Sequence record: NC_111505.1
Direction: 5' to 3' (one strand)
Length of the DNA stretch: 64,000 bases
From: a phage
A program made the position numbers and the translations under genes. The notes beneath the pieces are model-generated. The model was given only the letters and a program-made list of their open reading frames with translations. It ran no database searches and had not been told where the DNA came from. Every line of letters begins with the position of its first letter. The first letter of the stretch is position 1. Shown here piece by piece: positions 36,183-39,646 of this stretch.

Positions 36183-36228
36183 TTATCACGTGATAGGTGG
36201 ATTTTATCACGGCAAATACTGATTGTCA
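36183..36228 (-). promoter_or_regulatory. sigma70-type promoter with palindromic operator-like site
   Basis: Minus strand: -35 TTGACA (36228..36223), 17-bp spacer, -10 TAAAAT (36205..36200); perfect 12-bp palindrome TATCACGTGATA (36183..36194) lies between the -10 and the RBS of the 35834..36172 gene. Confidence 0.45.
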
Positions 36229-36517
36229 AGTTCGCCGCAGGGTGGTATTCCCTGCGACTTGCCCAGCGTCCTAGACCAGCAAGACCCAACAAGTGGGTTA
36301 CCAGAGACCCATTACCGCGCTTTGGCTCGACCTTATTACAGGTTGGCTGGGGTCACATCGTCATGTGCTGGCTGCCCCTACCATTTTAAGTGTGGTGCAC
36401 TATCAAGCCCTCTAAGGGGAACTCAGCCTTCTCCGAACCCTGTTTCAAAGCATCCGGAGATAAAGCCATCAAACTCATCTTTAAATTGGATATTCATCAT
36501 GATACACGAAAACAACC

Positions 36518-36760
36518 TCATTGTAAAGCACAAATAAATAAAACATACTTAATTTGTTTGTTATCGGGCTCAGGGTAGAAGTAGAAGATCTTGCTATCAC
36601 CAATCTGAACACCACCATCCCAACAACATAAACCATAACCCGTATTCATACAAGCTAAGTCGTTGGCAAAATCTATTGCATCATCTAGTGCACGAAATTC
36701 ACCTTCATCTTCTAAATAATCCTCATTCATGGAACGGAAAACGAGCTTAACCTTAAACAT
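36518..36760 (-). CDS. hypothetical protein
   Basis: 80-aa ORF, acidic. Confidence 0.4.
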   Translation of the reverse strand: MFKVKLVFRSMNEDYLEDEGEFRALDDAIDFANDLACMNTGYGLCCWDGGVQIGDSKIFYFYPEPDNKQIKYVLFICALQ

Positions 36761-36836: not shown

Positions 36837-37025
36837 TCAACAGATTCCGGCCTTATCCCTCCTGTCTGCGTATTCTTTAATCGCAACCTCACCTGCATTG
36901 GTAACCAGATCTTCAAAGTAATTCTCAAGCTCCTCGTCAATGTCCGGTGACCAGCTCTTTTTCCTGTCAGTGTGAATTGCAGACCTGTTGAACTTATTAC
37001 AGTTCTTTGCTACCGGATTGTTCAT
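36837..37025 (-). CDS. hypothetical protein
   Basis: 62-aa ORF on the same strand as its neighbours. Confidence 0.35.
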   Translation of the reverse strand: MNNPVAKNCNKFNRSAIHTDRKKSWSPDIDEELENYFEDLVTNAGEVAIKEYADRRDKAGIC

Positions 37026-37035
37026 TAAGCTCTCC

Positions 37036-37614
37036 TCAACGTTCGTAGTAAATCTTATTCAACATTACCTCATCGTTTGCAGAAAGGATATCAAGATATG
37101 CATCACCAAATCTGCCTGCAACAACCTCTGCATGATACATCACTTCGTCAACATCGTCAAGAGTGATAACCGGATGACCATATCTTTCTGAATATTGCCT
37201 CAGGGTGCGATGTAACGAGTCGTCATCATATGCAGACTTTTTAATATCACAAACACGACGAATGGCCTTGATGTCGAAAAAACCTGTGCGATACCACCCA
37301 AGAAAAAAGTTCCGTGTGGTGTCAACATCTACATCAATACCATCAAGAACCTTATCTACAAGATAGCTGTCATCCTTTGGACCAGCGTCCTTAGTGCGAA
37401 TGTAGTTGCCATCTTTTCCAGGCGATAGCTCCTTCTCATCACCAACCTGCATGCCATCATTTGGCGGTGTTAGCCACTTATCCGGATGCTTACGATCACG
37501 AGCGTTAGAATGATTACGCTGGAAACCTGGCTTCCACTTGAAAGTTTTCTCCATCTGTTCTTCATTCTGATAACGTTTTGCAATCTTTTCGCGGTCATCT
37601 TTGCGTGAACTCAT
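37036..37614 (-). CDS. hypothetical protein
   Basis: 192-aa ORF; first gene downstream of the 660-bp non-coding region. Confidence 0.5.
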   Translation of the reverse strand: MSSRKDDREKIAKRYQNEEQMEKTFKWKPGFQRNHSNARDRKHPDKWLTPPNDGMQVGDEKELSPGKDGNYIRTKDAGPKDDSYLVDKVLDGIDVDVDTTRNFFLGWYRTGFFDIKAIRRVCDIKKSAYDDDSLHRTLRQYSERYGHPVITLDDVDEVMYHAEVVAGRFGDAYLDILSANDEVMLNKIYYER

Positions 37615-37689
37615 AACTGCCTCCTCTTCAAGTTATAGAAAAACTCACTGTATCGCTTTGTAACGAGCTTTTCTATCAAACTGGTGCGA

Positions 37690-37985
37690 TTGCCTTACTT
37701 GGTATAGTTTACGCAGCTGTGTGGCGATTTAGGGGCCTTCCTGTCCGTTTCCACACATAAACTTTAACCAAACTCGCGCGGGAGGCTCTCAACCGACTCC
37801 TTACGGCGCTGGCAAGCTTTCGTCGGTGGCCCACATTAGTGCTCGGCATTTGGCCTGCGCTATCGCTTCGCTCCCACACATGTTAACAGTCCTGCATGTA
37901 TGCACTCCTGTTATTGTGTGCACTATGGAGGCCCGGCATCTCGCCCCTCGTAGGCGAGTGCCAATGAGGGGCCGACACTACCAAT
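37690..37985. other. GC-rich ORF-free island with multiple stems (candidate structured RNA or regulatory leader)
   Basis: About 300 nt visibly more GC-rich than flanking DNA, with no ORF of 60 aa or more in any frame and several complementary segments (GCCCCTC/GAGGGGC, CCGAC/GTCGG, GGGAG/CTCCC). Confidence 0.2.
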
Positions 37986-38117
37986 AGTAAGTAATAAATT
38001 TAAAACATGGTACTTAGGATCTAGTATATTCTACATAAGTTAAGTATATGTACTTTAGTACCATAAGTACTAGATCTTTTATTTTTTATTATTTAGTTAT
38101 TTTAGTTATATTCTTTA

Positions 38118-38201
38118 TGTGTCCGTATCACGGACAGTTAGTGTCCGTATTACGGGCAGATGTGTCCGCGTGACGGACAGTAGTGTCCGTATCACGGACA
38201 G
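38118..38201. repeat. four tandem iterons, each an inverted repeat (TGTCCGT-nnn-ACGGACA)
   Basis: Units at 38118..38137, 38141..38159, 38161..38180 and 38183..38201 (period 20-22 bp), each a palindrome with 7-bp arms; preceded by an AT-rich tract (37985..38117) with AGTAC-type repeats. Confidence 0.7.
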
Positions 38202-38275
38202 TTACTACCCTCTGCTCTGGGATGGACATAAAACATACGAATCCTTATAGTACAGATATTTAAGTTTTTACTGGT

Positions 38276-38626
38276 CTAACCAGTTGTTGACATTCGAATA
38301 ACCTCTTCTGGTGGCAAAACTTTGGAAAATGTGCACCTTTTACCTCTCCCTTGTGTGGATATTTCAACCACTCCTGCACATTCTAAAGTTTTAACGCACG
38401 CTGCTGCTTTTGTTTTCTTTATCCCAACATCTGCTGCAATTTTCCTTGTGCTGGGTGTGAAGCGTGAACTTCCTCCAAGCTTATACCAGTTGTGCAGGTA
38501 GCAGTATACGATCTTGTCATACAAGTCAAGAATAACAACCTCCCCAGTTGTGTCATTCAAAACTTTTGACATAGACAGTATTTCAAGGGGGACTTTAAGA
38601 TATAGCAGCTTATCCCCATCTTTCAT
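38276..38626 (-). CDS. helix-turn-helix DNA-binding protein
   Basis: 116-aa ORF with HTH-like segment (RKIAADVGIKKTKAAACVKTLECAGVVEI), directly adjacent to the iteron array. Confidence 0.5.
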   Translation of the reverse strand: MKDGDKLLYLKVPLEILSMSKVLNDTTGEVVILDLYDKIVYCYLHNWYKLGGSSRFTPSTRKIAADVGIKKTKAAACVKTLECAGVVEISTQGRGKRCTFSKVLPPEEVIRMSTTG

Positions 38627-38673
38627 ATCTCCTGATTCTCCTTGTGTGGCAATTTTCTTTAAAATAGCAGGGA

Positions 38674-39228
38674 TTACTCACCGCTGTCAATAGCAAAACT
38701 CATTGCAATACGGTATGCCTCTTCTAATGGTAAGAGTCTCCCCCACACATCCCAACCGACATCAAACTGCCTGCCAAACAACTGCTGTGTGGTTCCGTGA
38801 GCATGACCGAACAGTTGGACTGATCCGTGAGGCTTTCTGTTCCACTTTGCAAACTGGTAATGGCTCATACAGATCAAATTCTTGTTGTGGCGAAGCTCGT
38901 AATAATCTACAACCTCATGACCGAACTCTTTCATAATTCTGACAGTCGTTCTTGTGTCATGGTTACCACGAACAAGAATAATATGTCCGTTCAACATATT
39001 TAGAACATCTGGAAGCAATTTGTTGATATTCTTATCATTAGTGCACGCAATATCCCCCAAGTGAAACACAGTGTCTGCAGGTGACACAACAGAGTTCCAC
39101 TTGGTGATGATTCCCGCATTCATACTGTCAAGATTGTGATCATACTGAGATCTGTGTTTTTGACATGAGTCGAACTCCATTACCCGCTGGTGGAGAAAGT
39201 GTGTGTCGCTTGTTACAAAGTATTTCAT
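38674..39228 (-). CDS. calcineurin-like metallophosphatase (Ser/Thr phosphatase family)
   Basis: Metallophosphoesterase motifs SDTHF, GDIACTN, VRGNHD, GHAHG. Start at ATG 39228..39226, 7 nt after the stop of the upstream kinase gene. Confidence 0.6.
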   Translation of the reverse strand: MKYFVTSDTHFLHQRVMEFDSCQKHRSQYDHNLDSMNAGIITKWNSVVSPADTVFHLGDIACTNDKNINKLLPDVLNMLNGHIILVRGNHDTRTTVRIMKEFGHEVVDYYELRHNKNLICMSHYQFAKWNRKPHGSVQLFGHAHGTTQQLFGRQFDVGWDVWGRLLPLEEAYRIAMSFAIDSGE

Positions 39229-39235
39229 ACATTCC

Positions 39236-39646
39236 TCATTTAAGTTTAATGCAGTTTTTAAGCTGGCGTTCCATACGATCCACAACCCTGTCTGGAACAT
39301 CATGAATGCTTTTATTACCATGGCGGTTTTCAACCACGATCACGGTATAACTATATCCATGACTGATCGCCATGTCAATATATTCTTGCACATATTTTTC
39401 TTTTGTAAACGTATTACTTACCACGATACGGTCGTAGCCCATACGCATCATATCTTCTACGTTATCTTTGCACCATTTTGCTGCAAGTGTTACTTTACTT
39501 GCATCCCAATTGTAATTGCCGTCATCGTCGTACCAGAACATATCGTTCTCAAAATGTGGATACAGACCTTCTAAAGATAGCGCATTTGCCAGTGTTGATT
39601 TGCCAGACCCTGGTAGACCACGCACGATATATAGCATTTTAGACAT
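39236..39646 (-). CDS. P-loop kinase (polynucleotide-kinase-like)
   Basis: Start at ATG 39646..39644 (MSKMLYIVRGLPGSGKST, Walker A) with RBS GGAGAG; N-terminus resembles the T4 Pnk kinase domain as recalled. Confidence 0.55.
   Translation of the reverse strand: MSKMLYIVRGLPGSGKSTLANALSLEGLYPHFENDMFWYDDDGNYNWDASKVTLAAKWCKDNVEDMMRMGYDRIVVSNTFTKEKYVQEYIDMAISHGYSYTVIVVENRHGNKSIHDVPDRVVDRMERQLKNCIKLK

Follow-up and report, generated by a model that had tools for sequence, protein, structure and literature searches.

A tandem palindrome array with an adjoining AT-rich element as a candidate iteron-type replication origin in an rV5-like Vequintavirus

The window, which is the whole 64,000-nucleotide stretch analysed here, belongs to the genome of a Vequintavirus (rV5/FV3-like), a phage of E. 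coli. A non-coding region flanked by ORF77 and a small HTH gene carries a tandem repeat array and an AT-rich element. The features of the locus are as follows.

37036..37614, minus strand: ORF77, 192 aa, flanking the non-coding region
37615..37984, no strand: GC-rich non-coding stretch (52-57% GC) from the AT element to ORF77
37943..37972, no strand: GC-rich palindrome GCCCCTCGTAGGC / GCCAATGAGGGGC, 13 bp beyond the far side of the AT tract
37985..38118, no strand: AT-rich element of 134 bp, candidate DNA-unwinding element, abutting the array
38007-38014/38057-38064 and 38018-38026/38068-38076: displaced inverted pairs in the AT element, both perfect
38073..38085, plus strand: oriC-type 13-mer GATCTTTTATTTT, a perfect match to GATCTnTTnTTTT
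38077-38109: T-rich mini-repeats inside the AT element
38119..38204, no strand: candidate iteron array of four 21-22-bp semi-palindromic direct repeats, unit G-TGTCCG-N5-CGGACA-GT
38119-38140, 38141-38162, 38162-38183 and 38183-38204, no strand: the four direct repeats, spaced 22, 21 and 21 bp
38120-38136, 38142-38158, 38163-38179 and 38184-38200: the palindrome cores TGTCCG-N5-CGGACA
38223..38251, plus strand: promoter-like site TGGACA-N17-TATAGT, with the array on one side and the 3' end of the HTH gene on the other
38276..38626, minus strand: HTH gene, encoding a 116-aa extended winged-helix protein (rV5 ORF79)
38661..38690, minus strand: sigma-70-like promoter TTGACA-N18-TATTTT upstream of the HTH gene, containing no palindrome copy

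An earlier note on this DNA had described four tandem palindromic units between the HTH gene and the gene at 37036..37614. The units are indeed present, with their spacing now refined to 22, 21 and 21 bp, and both flanking genes agree with the list of open reading frames and with the annotation of relatives. TRF gave a period of 21 and 4.0 copies for the array, a spacing of about two helical turns. One arm of the core at 38142 reads CGGGCA, a mismatch. When the palindrome was searched with up to 2 mismatches, the four copies of the array were the sole matches in the 64-kb window, while shuffled sequence gave a mean of 1.17 scattered matches. Hence, four phased copies inside 85 bp are far above chance. 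In the complete FV3 genome the array is the sole cluster of the motif, and elsewhere there is one singleton with 1 mismatch. The arrays of relatives hold 2-4 copies, with conserved arms and a variable centre. The units are directional, as semi-palindromic direct repeats: among 11 distinct site sequences from relatives the preceding G, the central T and the subsequent G are all invariant, the T after the trailing G is kept in 10, and the remaining central bases vary. With its 22/21/21-bp spacing, the array shows the tandem, helically phased repeats of an iteron origin. No description of it was found in the literature that we searched.

The AT-rich segment of about 130 bp that had been placed beside the array was recovered as the tract at 37985-38118, whose GC content is about 20%, and 22-28% in the 100-bp steps of the window. 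In FV3, no other 100-bp window of the 136,947-bp genome is as poor in GC as the counterpart of this tract (19%). By composition and by abutment the tract is thus a candidate for the AT-rich unwinding element that adjoins iterons in an origin. The repeated AGTAC/CTAGATC motifs reported earlier are arranged as displaced inverted pairs, of which there are two, both perfect: ATGGTACT/AGTACCAT and GATCTAGTA/TACTAGATC. The element contains two GATC sites and four GTAC sites, and it is the densest GTAC cluster of a genome in which GTAC occurs at half the expected frequency. Its 13-mer fits the E. coli oriC 13-mer consensus perfectly, as no other site of the 64-kb window does; sites with up to 2 mismatches occur at chance level. 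The window holds two copies of the core AGATCTTTTA, where 0.31 would be expected, and reading of the corresponding loci found this core also in the AT elements of Mydovirus, Henunavirus and GAP31/4MG-type Seunavirus, while the PVP-SE1-type elements carry the one-base variant TGATCTTTTA in its place. DnaA boxes showed neither clustering nor enrichment at the locus. Among relatives, 6-8% of the columns in the AT element are variable versus 12-20% in the flanking genes. Compared with the AT elements of other genera, that of the window shows marginal sequence similarity (z 0.4-2.9, and one Erwinia phage at 5.9).

The best match of the HTH protein to a solved structure by sequence was PDB 4RO3 (E 9.9e-6, residues 12-90), the iteron-binding N-terminal domain of PLE RepA, a RepA_N initiator from Vibrio cholerae. 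AlphaFold on the single sequence reached a pLDDT of 35; a 16-sequence alignment was used instead, and the resulting AF2 model has a pLDDT of 76.6. Foldseek with this model ranked 4ro3 first (E 2.7e-5) and placed the RepA N-terminal domains 4pql, 4pt7 and 5kbj after it, and many generic wHTH regulators were also close structural matches. The fold of the predicted model is the RepA_N/DnaD-like extended winged helix. All PHROG matches of the protein are "replication initiation" families. In Pfam it had no RepA_N (PF06970) match at E <= 1 and reached no family cut-off; the best scores were 24.6 bits for DUF6945 (cut-off 28) and 22.8 for HTH_36 (cut-off 25), and a Mydo-type homologue lies just above the DUF6945 cut-off with 28.7 bits. 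Both in sequence and in predicted fold the protein is closest to 4RO3, with the staphylococcal RepA_N N-terminal domains next.

The protein consists of a single DNA-binding domain, and its chain ends about 25 residues past the wing; lengths in the family are 81-116 aa, with a single exception of 194 aa. It lacks the C-terminal host-specific domain of RepA_N, and no domain that would recruit a helicase, primase or loader was found in it. Both the rV5 and the GenBank annotators labelled it a transcriptional regulator. A word-indexed search for distant homologues returned close relatives only, an exhaustive HMMER search returned one cluster plus weak matches to larger HTH_36/DUF6945 proteins, and no related loci were found in IMG/VR with the protein as query. 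Because the distant-homologue searches were poor, co-variation was sought via synteny in other genera.

Three small homologous proteins were recognized (hhalign probabilities of 91% and 74%, whole chain), each beside its own tandem palindromes. The Vequintavirus repeat type is TGTCCG-N5-CGGACA; type 2 (Mydo/GAP31/4MG/pEp01) is TGCTCA-N3-TGAGCA in two copies, and type 3 (PVP-SE1/KNP2/FENT2/KB57) is ATTCCC-N4-GGGAAT in three copies. The type-2 and type-3 palindromes adjoin a common AT/GATC element comparable to that of the window. These cassettes are swapped between backbones that are otherwise 97-99% identical (identity on the right flank), and protein and sites therefore co-vary. The premise shared by both alternatives of the earlier note, namely that the array serves the HTH protein, is backed by this co-variation of protein and repeat types across the Vequintavirinae. 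Sequence comparison thus favours the view that the adjacent HTH protein has its cognate binding sites in the array, and the observed adjacency, together with the way in which the three protein types go with the three repeat types, would suit a cis-encoded cognate initiator, with the HTH protein as the predicted binder.

Salmonella phage 19 was considered as a fourth cassette and discarded, its record being full of frameshifts and unusable. The phAPEC8-like phage "ukendt" has a divergent region rich in AT, GATC and AGTAC and has no adjacent small wHTH gene, so the scheme is not simply extendable there. When IMG/VR was scanned with a DNA pattern that represents the repeat junction, mainly chance single matches came up. 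Its one multi-copy match, an unrelated high-GC contig (L072), is a nice analogue of the array: an O-like replication gene (PHROG 270) holds five copies of TGTCCG-N5-CGGACA inside its own coding sequence. Since it was found by pattern search and its protein has no direct similarity to the HTH protein, it is regarded as an analogue and not as independent evidence.

The rest of the intergenic region was also inspected. The GC-rich palindrome at 37943..37972 is an inverted repeat that is conserved in the alignment of relatives. In lambda ori a palindrome lies beyond the AT tract, and by this analogy we infer that the palindrome here may have a role in the origin module. The stretch 37615..37984 may perhaps be part of that module; its RNA folding z values are -2.3 and -2.7 on the two strands. 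Rfam returned nothing for the intergenic region at gathering score, the best being rli43 at 25.8 bits against 100, and only tRNAs for the window. The rV5 "ORF78" was rejected as a gene, as it shows no third-position bias (variable columns 10/15/9 versus 8/11/37 and 21/12/60 in real genes). ORF77 was found in 119 phage records, all Vequintavirus, and is genus-restricted like the HTH gene; it has no Pfam or PDB match, and its PHROG, 12226, is of unknown function. It is a possible partner of the HTH protein. As a recruiting partner, however, it was dropped for want of a family or structure match.

The short gap in rV5 that corresponds to the promoter at 38661..38690 carries the annotated sigma-70-type promoter P76. 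As this promoter of the HTH gene contains no palindrome, the array is not at the gene's own promoter; in the window it is linked to the AT element instead. The promoter-like site at 38223..38251 is directed antisense into the HTH gene, and relatives keep its -10 and, partly, its -35. A promoter and terminator scan called no normal promoter and no terminator within the array or the AT tract, and the rV5 promoter tables have no entry at either.

The global cumulative GC-skew minimum of FV3 falls in the 65,001-66,000 bin, 0.6-1.6 kb from the array, which with its AT tract occupies about 64.3-64.5 kb of that genome, and the same minimum is found in the window. FV3 also has a 2.3-kb non-coding region at 104.3-106.6 kb as a conceivable alternative site. 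The rV5 genome paper sought an origin by skew and defined none; one of its skew switches, at 66,675-66,725, adjoins the array locus, and its authors found that it coincides with the point of divergent transcription. Because of this coincidence, skew is weak evidence for an origin. In the literature that we searched, there was neither a mapped origin nor a transcriptome for the Vequintavirinae.

Taken together, we hold with moderate confidence that the array at 38119-38204 and the tract at 37985-38118 form an iteron-type replication origin or an origin-like initiation site, with the 116-aa protein as its sequence-specific binder. What is established is the anatomy of the locus, the genome-wide uniqueness of the array, the extremes of composition and skew, the kinship with RepA N-terminal domains and the exchange of cassettes. 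The earlier note had left open whether the array is an operator array or an origin. The architecture on which it relied stands, and the evidence now leans to an origin through the RepA kinship, the uniqueness, the lowest GC, the skew minimum and the linkage of array and AT element.

A possible mechanism can be outlined. Judging from gene position, the protein would be produced early from the leftward operon. Its dimers would bind the four semi-palindromic repeats, as co-variation and homology to the PLE RepA N-terminal domain suggest, and since the repeats are phased at about two helical turns, all dimers are proposed to sit on one face of the DNA. The nucleoprotein complex would then strain the adjoining tract of about 20% GC, presumably the easiest melting spot of the genome and one that bears an oriC-type 13-mer. 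Because the protein has no recruiting domain, we speculate that the bubble is used directly by phage helicases, namely the T7-gp4-like primase-helicase, the PIF1/SF1B helicase, or both. Read-through transcription from early promoters may perhaps assist.

Several observations count against the origin reading. The C-terminal recruiting domain, which RepA_N and lambda O initiators use, is missing. The near-invariance of the AT element is above the needs of a plain unwinding element. The protein reaches no Pfam cut-off, the skew minimum is confounded by divergent transcription, the AT elements of other genera resemble that of the window only marginally, and DnaA boxes do not cluster.

Among known systems, PLE offers a direct comparison. 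Its RepA binds semi-palindromic iterons and drives phage-dependent replication, as evidenced by EMSA and genetics, and its origin consists of semi-palindromic direct repeats in a non-coding region that fires only with the replisome of ICP1. PLE replication requires an SF1B helicase. According to the rV5 paper, rV5 encodes a PIF1/SF1B helicase plus its own gp4-type helicase-primase, and the DNA polymerase of ICP1 is among the closest homologues of that of rV5. The likeness thus covers semi-palindromic direct repeats in non-coding DNA and an SF1B helicase. However, PLE RepA has a C-terminal domain whereas the window protein is the N-terminal domain alone, the two share only about 28% identity, and the repeat sequences are unrelated. 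Moreover, PLE is a satellite, while the window is the phage's own genome, in which the candidate origin is known from sequence alone. The staphylococcal RepA_N initiators (pSK41, pTZ2162; 4PQL, 4PT7, 5KBJ) have the same extended winged-helix N-terminal fold and occupy Foldseek ranks 3rd to 8th, but with TM-scores of about 0.5, and the window protein has no Pfam RepA_N match and no C-terminal domain. In the staphylococcal RepA_N plasmids the iterons lie inside the rep gene.

The lambda origin has the same layout as the candidate locus: four phased initiator-binding repeats with internal dyad symmetry, an adjoining AT-rich region and then a palindrome. Lambda encodes its initiator in cis and has its origin within an early transcription unit, as is proposed here. 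Lambdoid phages exchange initiator specificity and iterons as a unit, which resembles the cassettes of the Vequintavirinae. In contrast, the lambda iterons lie within gene O, and the C-terminal domain of O recruits P-DnaB, whereas the phage here has its own gp4-type helicase-primase. The HTH protein had no Phage_rep_O match in Pfam, and its Mydo-type homologue gave weak matches to O-like PHROGs. Iteron plasmid origins (RK2, pPS10, P1 oriR) and the oriC type of unwinding element share with the locus an architecture of iterons and an AT-rich unwinding element with a GATC-bearing 13-mer, but here no DnaA boxes are nearby and a perfect 13-mer occurs just once. The Rep proteins of plasmids carry two winged-helix domains.

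The most serious rival, which we judge less likely, is that the wHTH protein is a transcription factor and that its four sites serve transcriptional control purely, with no role in replication. Transcription that leaves the early genes (kinase, phosphoesterase, HTH) and enters ORF77, the tRNAs and the late genes might be blocked or modulated by the sites, or they might govern a promoter, either a weak one bordering the AT tract or the antisense one at 38223-38251. A lone DNA-binding domain is of a size typical for phage regulators, and the generic wHTH regulators among the close structural matches and the annotation as a transcriptional regulator point the same way. Small dimeric HTH proteins with several palindromic sites are familiar from repressor/operator modules (lambda OR/OL; MarR/GntR-type wHTH), and the cassette exchange resembles that of immunity regions. 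Indeed, swaps of repressor-plus-operator cassettes are as well known as those of initiator-plus-iteron cassettes, which we count for the operator reading. By eye, the small gene of PVP-SE1-type phages has a sigma-70-like promoter (TTGACA-N17-TACATT) with two type-3 sites immediately before it and the third immediately past its -10. This bracketing of the promoter is the classic autoregulatory layout of a repressor, and it also counts against an origin. In Mydo-type phages the sites have the AT element on one side and the ribosome-binding site of the small gene on the other. By eye, a weak leftward promoter in the window could be made up of the last half-site CGGACA and a TAAAAT 15 nt on, and the promoter-like site lies on the other side of the array.

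Against purely transcriptional control, the window array is 3' of the HTH gene, no sigma-70 promoter of normal geometry (16-18-nt spacing) overlaps it, and the gene's own promoter is free of sites. The nearest relatives of the protein by sequence are initiator N-terminal domains, not regulators. One cluster in 137 kb means that there is no regulon, which also argues against operators. Furthermore, the operator reading leaves unexplained why the sites always have next to them an extreme AT tract, located at the skew minimum. If a weak alignment is trusted, the module of array plus AT element seems, in comparison with other genera, to be inverted relative to the flanking transcription, and this would argue for an orientation-independent function.

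It is very improbable that the array is some other platform bound by the small protein, such as a pac recognition site, a centromere-like site, a roadblock or an insulator. Tandem phased sites with small wHTH proteins are typical of centromeres (TubR/tubC, SopB/sopC), and as the genome is circularly permuted, a pac site exists somewhere. The large-terminase gene lies about 4.5 kb from the array, and the Mydo-type protein gave weak SopB-HTH matches. However, these matches have E values of about 0.5, TubR matches the model poorly (TM 0.33), the neighbouring genes include no small-terminase, ParA or TubZ partner, and the Pfam and PHROG results include no terminase family. The module is placed among early genes, with tRNAs and spanins between the array and the large-terminase gene, whereas a pac site would be expected in or next to the terminase genes.

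Least credible of all is a role in RNA, in which the HTH transcript would carry the palindromes as hairpins in its 3' untranslated region and these would serve as a stabiliser, processing site or terminator. Although the array lies 70 nt past the HTH stop codon on the transcribed strand and its RNA folds very stably on either strand (z -6.9 and -5.7), no T-run stands behind any hairpin and no terminator was called; neither a U-run nor compensatory pairing was found in the array; the best predicted fold pairs neighbouring repeats instead of forming four hairpins; the conserved arm mismatch of copy 2 would put a C.A mispair into the sense RNA while the FV3 copy 3 variant is tolerated on the opposite strand only, so that neither strand is consistently favoured; the flanking G residues and the central T, which are invariant, and the flanking T, which is nearly so, are placed asymmetrically and stay unpaired; and the counterpart repeats of other genera are upstream of the gene.

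We thus return to the iteron-type origin, and offer a broader proposal more tentatively. A large virulent myophage may use an iteron origin whose initiator has been cut to a stand-alone RepA_N-type DNA-binding domain that melts or marks the origin, while a self-loading gp4-type primase-helicase or an SF1B helicase does the rest. Initiator and iterons would form an exchangeable specificity cassette on a shared unwinding element, and the same lineage might have given PLE-like satellites their origin-binding domain.

The rV5-like phages and their relatives (PVP-SE1, phi92-related phages, Klebsiella Mydoviruses) are widely used in therapy and biocontrol. If the reading is true, an origin with a specific binder would be an engineering handle, for example for phage-dependent replicons, conditional replication mutants, or reporter and payload plasmids that are amplified solely upon infection. 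The protein would then be a natural initiator stripped to its DNA-binding domain, which bears on the loading of replisomes where a dedicated loader is lacking. The locus most likely marks the origin of the rV5-like group, which the rV5 genome paper did not define by skew. The exchangeable protein/site cassettes suggest a system of replication specificity or incompatibility among co-infecting phages, and the kinship with PLE RepA hints at the source of satellite initiators.

The region 37000-39400 was matched at 96-98% identity by more than 100 Vequintavirus genomes, rV5, FV3, BASEL and Danish wastewater isolates among them. Eighteen 'UNVERIFIED Campylobacter phage' records (MG0656xx) share about 96% identity with E. 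coli rV5-like phages over the same region, and their host label is doubtful. As placed by the annotation of relatives, the array and the AT element lie inside a 660-bp gap between the HTH gene and ORF77, which matches the earlier note's position between the 3' end of the HTH gene and the region upstream of ORF77. The divergent point of two large transcription units is about 1.5 kb away.

Features of the region (window coordinates)
37036-37614, minus strand: ORF77, 192 aa, labelled hypothetical in relatives
37615-37984: conserved stretch of about 370 bp, GC 52-57%
37985-38118: AT-rich element
Starts 38119, 38141, 38162 and 38183: four direct repeats of 21-22 bp (the array)
38223-38251, plus strand: promoter-like TGGACA-N17-TATAGT, just past the array, antisense into the 3' end of the HTH gene
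38276-38626, minus strand: HTH gene, 116 aa

The array is labelled 'repeat_region', and nothing more, in a few GenBank records of relatives. The HTH gene is called 'putative transcriptional regulator' or 'replication initiation protein', the latter being its RefSeq name via PHROG transfer. ORF77 is genus-restricted like the HTH gene (119 versus 118 records), and no family or solved relative was detected for it. The whole HTH-to-ORF77 block may be one genus-specific module.

The four tandem units of about 20 bp noticed before were borne out by the four direct repeats, each of which contains TGTCCG-N5-CGGACA (the arm being CGGGCA in copy 2). No further match was found in the 64-kb window with up to 2 mismatches allowed, and the FV3 genome (136,947 bp) gave one extra match outside the array, a singleton with one mismatch. 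Seven distinct arrays were present among 15 related genomes and contigs. Across 11 distinct site sequences of relatives, G-TGTCCG, the central T and CGGACA-G show little or no variation, the T after CGGACA-G is kept in 10, and the remaining central positions are variable. Thus, the units are directional, semi-palindromic direct repeats rather than pure palindromes. Most genomes carry four copies, A135 three and YN3 two, as counted in assemblies where repeats may have collapsed. The Logan metagenomic contigs L135, L136 and L137 stop inside or just past the array, most simply through an assembly break at a tandem repeat; such breaks warn that copy numbers from short-read assemblies may be unreliable.

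The AT-rich segment reported beside the array is real, with a GC content of 22-28%. It contains two perfect displaced inverted pairs, T-rich mini-repeats, two GATC sites and the single perfect oriC-type 13-mer of the window, while a GC-rich palindrome lies on its far side. Its GTAC cluster is the densest in the whole genome, where GTAC overall occurs at half the expected frequency. It is also the best-conserved part of the region, with 6-8% variable columns versus 12-20% in the flanking genes. In the stretch 37615-37984, between the tract and ORF77, rV5 'ORF78' was rejected as a gene as it fails the codon-position test (variable columns 10/15/9 by codon position). This stretch folds slightly above shuffles on both strands (z -2.3 and -2.7), matched no Rfam family at gathering score, and might serve as a long 5' leader, form a stable RNA or belong to the origin. 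A second GC-rich gap (36173-36517, 50-57%), apparently non-coding, lies between a gene ending at about 36172 and gene 36518-36760, in the leftward unit of the HTH gene and just upstream of a tRNA cluster (35014-35737). This cluster includes a 99-nt tRNA-like gene (35170-35268) with a four-base anticodon (atcc) and no amino acid assigned by ARAGORN; it scores 37.5 bits with Rfam tRNA, is 'tRNA-OTHER' in phage naam and is absent from the FV3 annotation.

The family of the HTH protein is tiny: among 5.8 billion proteins it holds Vequintavirus members only (at least 86% identity), an exhaustive HMMER scan of 1.8 billion representatives gave one cluster, and all 118 phage records with the protein are Vequintavirus. 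Pfam returned DUF6945 and HTH_36 only, both sub-threshold, and PHROGs placed the protein in family 12838, with weak matches to other 'replication initiation protein' families. Among solved structures, the closest by sequence was PDB 4RO3 (E 9.9e-6, residues 12-90), identified in published work as the N-terminal domain of RepA from the Vibrio cholerae satellite PLE. This RepA_N-family initiator binds a semi-palindromic iteron in EMSA; PLE replication requires both RepA and the iteron, and RepA is active only during infection by phage ICP1. An AlphaFold model of moderate confidence (16-sequence alignment, pLDDT 76.6, pTM 0.73) again gave 4ro3 as the top Foldseek match (E 2.7e-5, TM 0.61), with 4pql, 4pt7 and 5kbj, N-terminal domains of staphylococcal RepA, coming next. 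By these matches, the protein belongs with the extended winged helices seen at the N terminus of RepA_N/DnaD proteins, and consists of that domain alone. Profile-found relatives measure 81-116 aa, with one exception of 194 aa. Membership of RepA_N is not established, as the fold agrees while the Pfam model is unmatched and the C-terminal domain is absent.

Since sequence search found no distant homologues, synteny was used in other Vequintavirinae genera, where a small wHTH gene lies at the main divergent intergenic region.

Protein-plus-repeat cassettes in Vequintavirinae
Type 1: Vequintavirus (window); 116 aa; TGTCCG-N5-CGGACA, 2-4 copies at 21-22 bp
Type 2: Mydo, BIS47, GAP31, 4MG, Erwinia pEp01 and two metagenomic contigs; 105-114 aa; two tandem copies at 23 bp, CCTATGCTCAAATTGAGCAC-like, core TGCTCA-N3-TGAGCA
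Type 3: PVP-SE1, SEW6S, FENT2, KNP2 and KB57; 118-123 aa; CTAATTATTCCC-N4-GGGAAT, two direct copies (24 bp) and one inverted copy

Profile comparison linked type 2 both to the window protein (91% probability, E 1e-6) and to type 3 (74%, E 2.7e-5), while types 1 and 3 compared directly gave a weak 8.6%. Seunavirus and Mydovirus each have both type 2 and type 3. With the GAP31 intergenic region as blastn query, type-2 genomes match 1-278 and type-3 genomes only from 56 or 102 onward. Between Mydo (type 2) and KNP2/KB57 (type 3), the right-hand intergenic part and the next gene show 97-99% identity, whereas the small gene and the adjoining ~110 bp with the repeats are unrelated. Hence, the small gene and its repeats have moved between phages together, as one cassette. 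This exchange, seen within a set of only three cassette types, is the strongest computational evidence that each protein would recognise its own repeats.

Behind the repeats of types 2 and 3 come an A-rich tract and dyads that contain GATC, e.g. AACAATAAAACATAAGATCT...GATCTTTTA. The window AT element showed marginal similarity to the AT elements of other genera (z 0.4-2.9; z 5.9 for that of pEp01, aligned directly after the repeats in both); we treat this likeness as shared architecture rather than proven homology. Two other loci were observed. In phage ukendt (L152:2390-2580; Phapecoctavirus, phAPEC8-like), the divergent intergenic region combines very AT-rich tracts that open with GATCTA and five AGTAC repeats spaced 7-8 nt apart, recalling the AGTAC/GATC motifs of the window AT element, with no small wHTH gene alongside. 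An unrelated high-GC viral contig (L072:2685-2795, IMG/VR UViG_3300034101_004648) has, within the coding sequence of its 387-aa replication-initiator-like gene (PHROG 270), five TGTCCG-N5-CGGACA repeats spaced 22-25 bp apart; the origin-in-gene layout resembles lambda O, and the half-sites shared with the window are a coincidence of the search.

In the whole FV3 genome, put together from three fetched pieces, three independent extremes meet at this locus: the repeat motif clusters nowhere else, GC content is lower (19%) than in any other 100-bp window, and cumulative GC skew reaches its global minimum (65,001-66,000 bin, 0.6-1.6 kb from the array), which coincides with the minimum of our window. 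The rV5 genome paper reported the skew switch, ascribed it to a change in transcription direction and defined no origin; skew alone is therefore weak evidence, and its minimum is more telling together with the other two. A separate 2.3-kb stretch without annotated genes (FV3 104,328-106,594; L147:4329-6593), at the convergent end of two transcription units and outside the window, lies near the skew maximum and contains 2 of the 12 lowest-GC windows. This stretch probably corresponds to the box marked 'non-coding' in the rV5 paper, and it is a candidate for a terminus or for a second origin.

Between the two readings offered earlier, operator array or origin, we give an even chance to the array and AT tract being a replication origin. 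In its favour, the nearest relatives of the protein are initiator domains, the iterons adjoin, in the classic layout, an extremely AT-rich tract that holds a perfect oriC-type 13-mer and has a GC-rich palindrome past it, and the array occurs at a single genomic location. Furthermore, it lies 3' of the HTH gene in Vequintavirus and stays attached to the AT tract, and the gene's own promoter (rV5 P76) has no repeat site. A role in transcriptional control only is possible but rather doubtful. In favour of this operator reading, the protein is small and without a recruiting domain, and type 3 has an autoregulatory-looking layout, where a promoter (TTGACA-N17-TACATT), read by eye, has the direct copies on one side and the inverted one on the other. 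Promoter-like sites also flank the window array, namely 38223-38251, whose -10 is kept in relatives (as TATAAT in the Aya clade), and, at the other edge and on the minus strand, CGGACA-N15-TAAAAT, found by eye. Origin and operator roles could go together, since autoregulation is common among the initiators of plasmids and phages. A role as RNA hairpins is unlikely, as no terminator was called, a mispair in copy 2 of the sense RNA is conserved, the flanking bases, invariant or nearly so, lack symmetry and the predicted fold pairs neighbouring repeats instead of forming four hairpins; neither partner genes nor family matches support a pac site or centromere.

If the locus is an origin, the early-made protein would bind as dimers to the four sites, all on one helix face, and the adjacent AT tract would be distorted and melted. 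The phage's T7-gp4-like primase-helicase and PIF1-type helicase could then enter without a dedicated loader, and read-through transcription from early leftward promoters may help initiation. Transcription assists at lambda ori, and the window layout would operate in the manner of lambda ori/O and of RepA_N or iteron-plasmid origins. The two helicases are gp230 and gp237 in the rV5 genome paper, which also names the DNA polymerase of ICP1 as one of the closest to that of rV5. The proposed use of the phage's own helicases is likened to PLE RepA, which depends on the SF1B helicase of its helper phage.

The searchable literature gave no paper tying the HTH gene to the repeats or mapping an origin in Vequintavirinae. 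The gene name 'replication initiation protein' and the skew switch were already known. On the sequence comparisons, the locus would be classed as an iteron origin of large virulent phages, served by an initiator that is an N-terminal domain only and carried as an exchangeable cassette.
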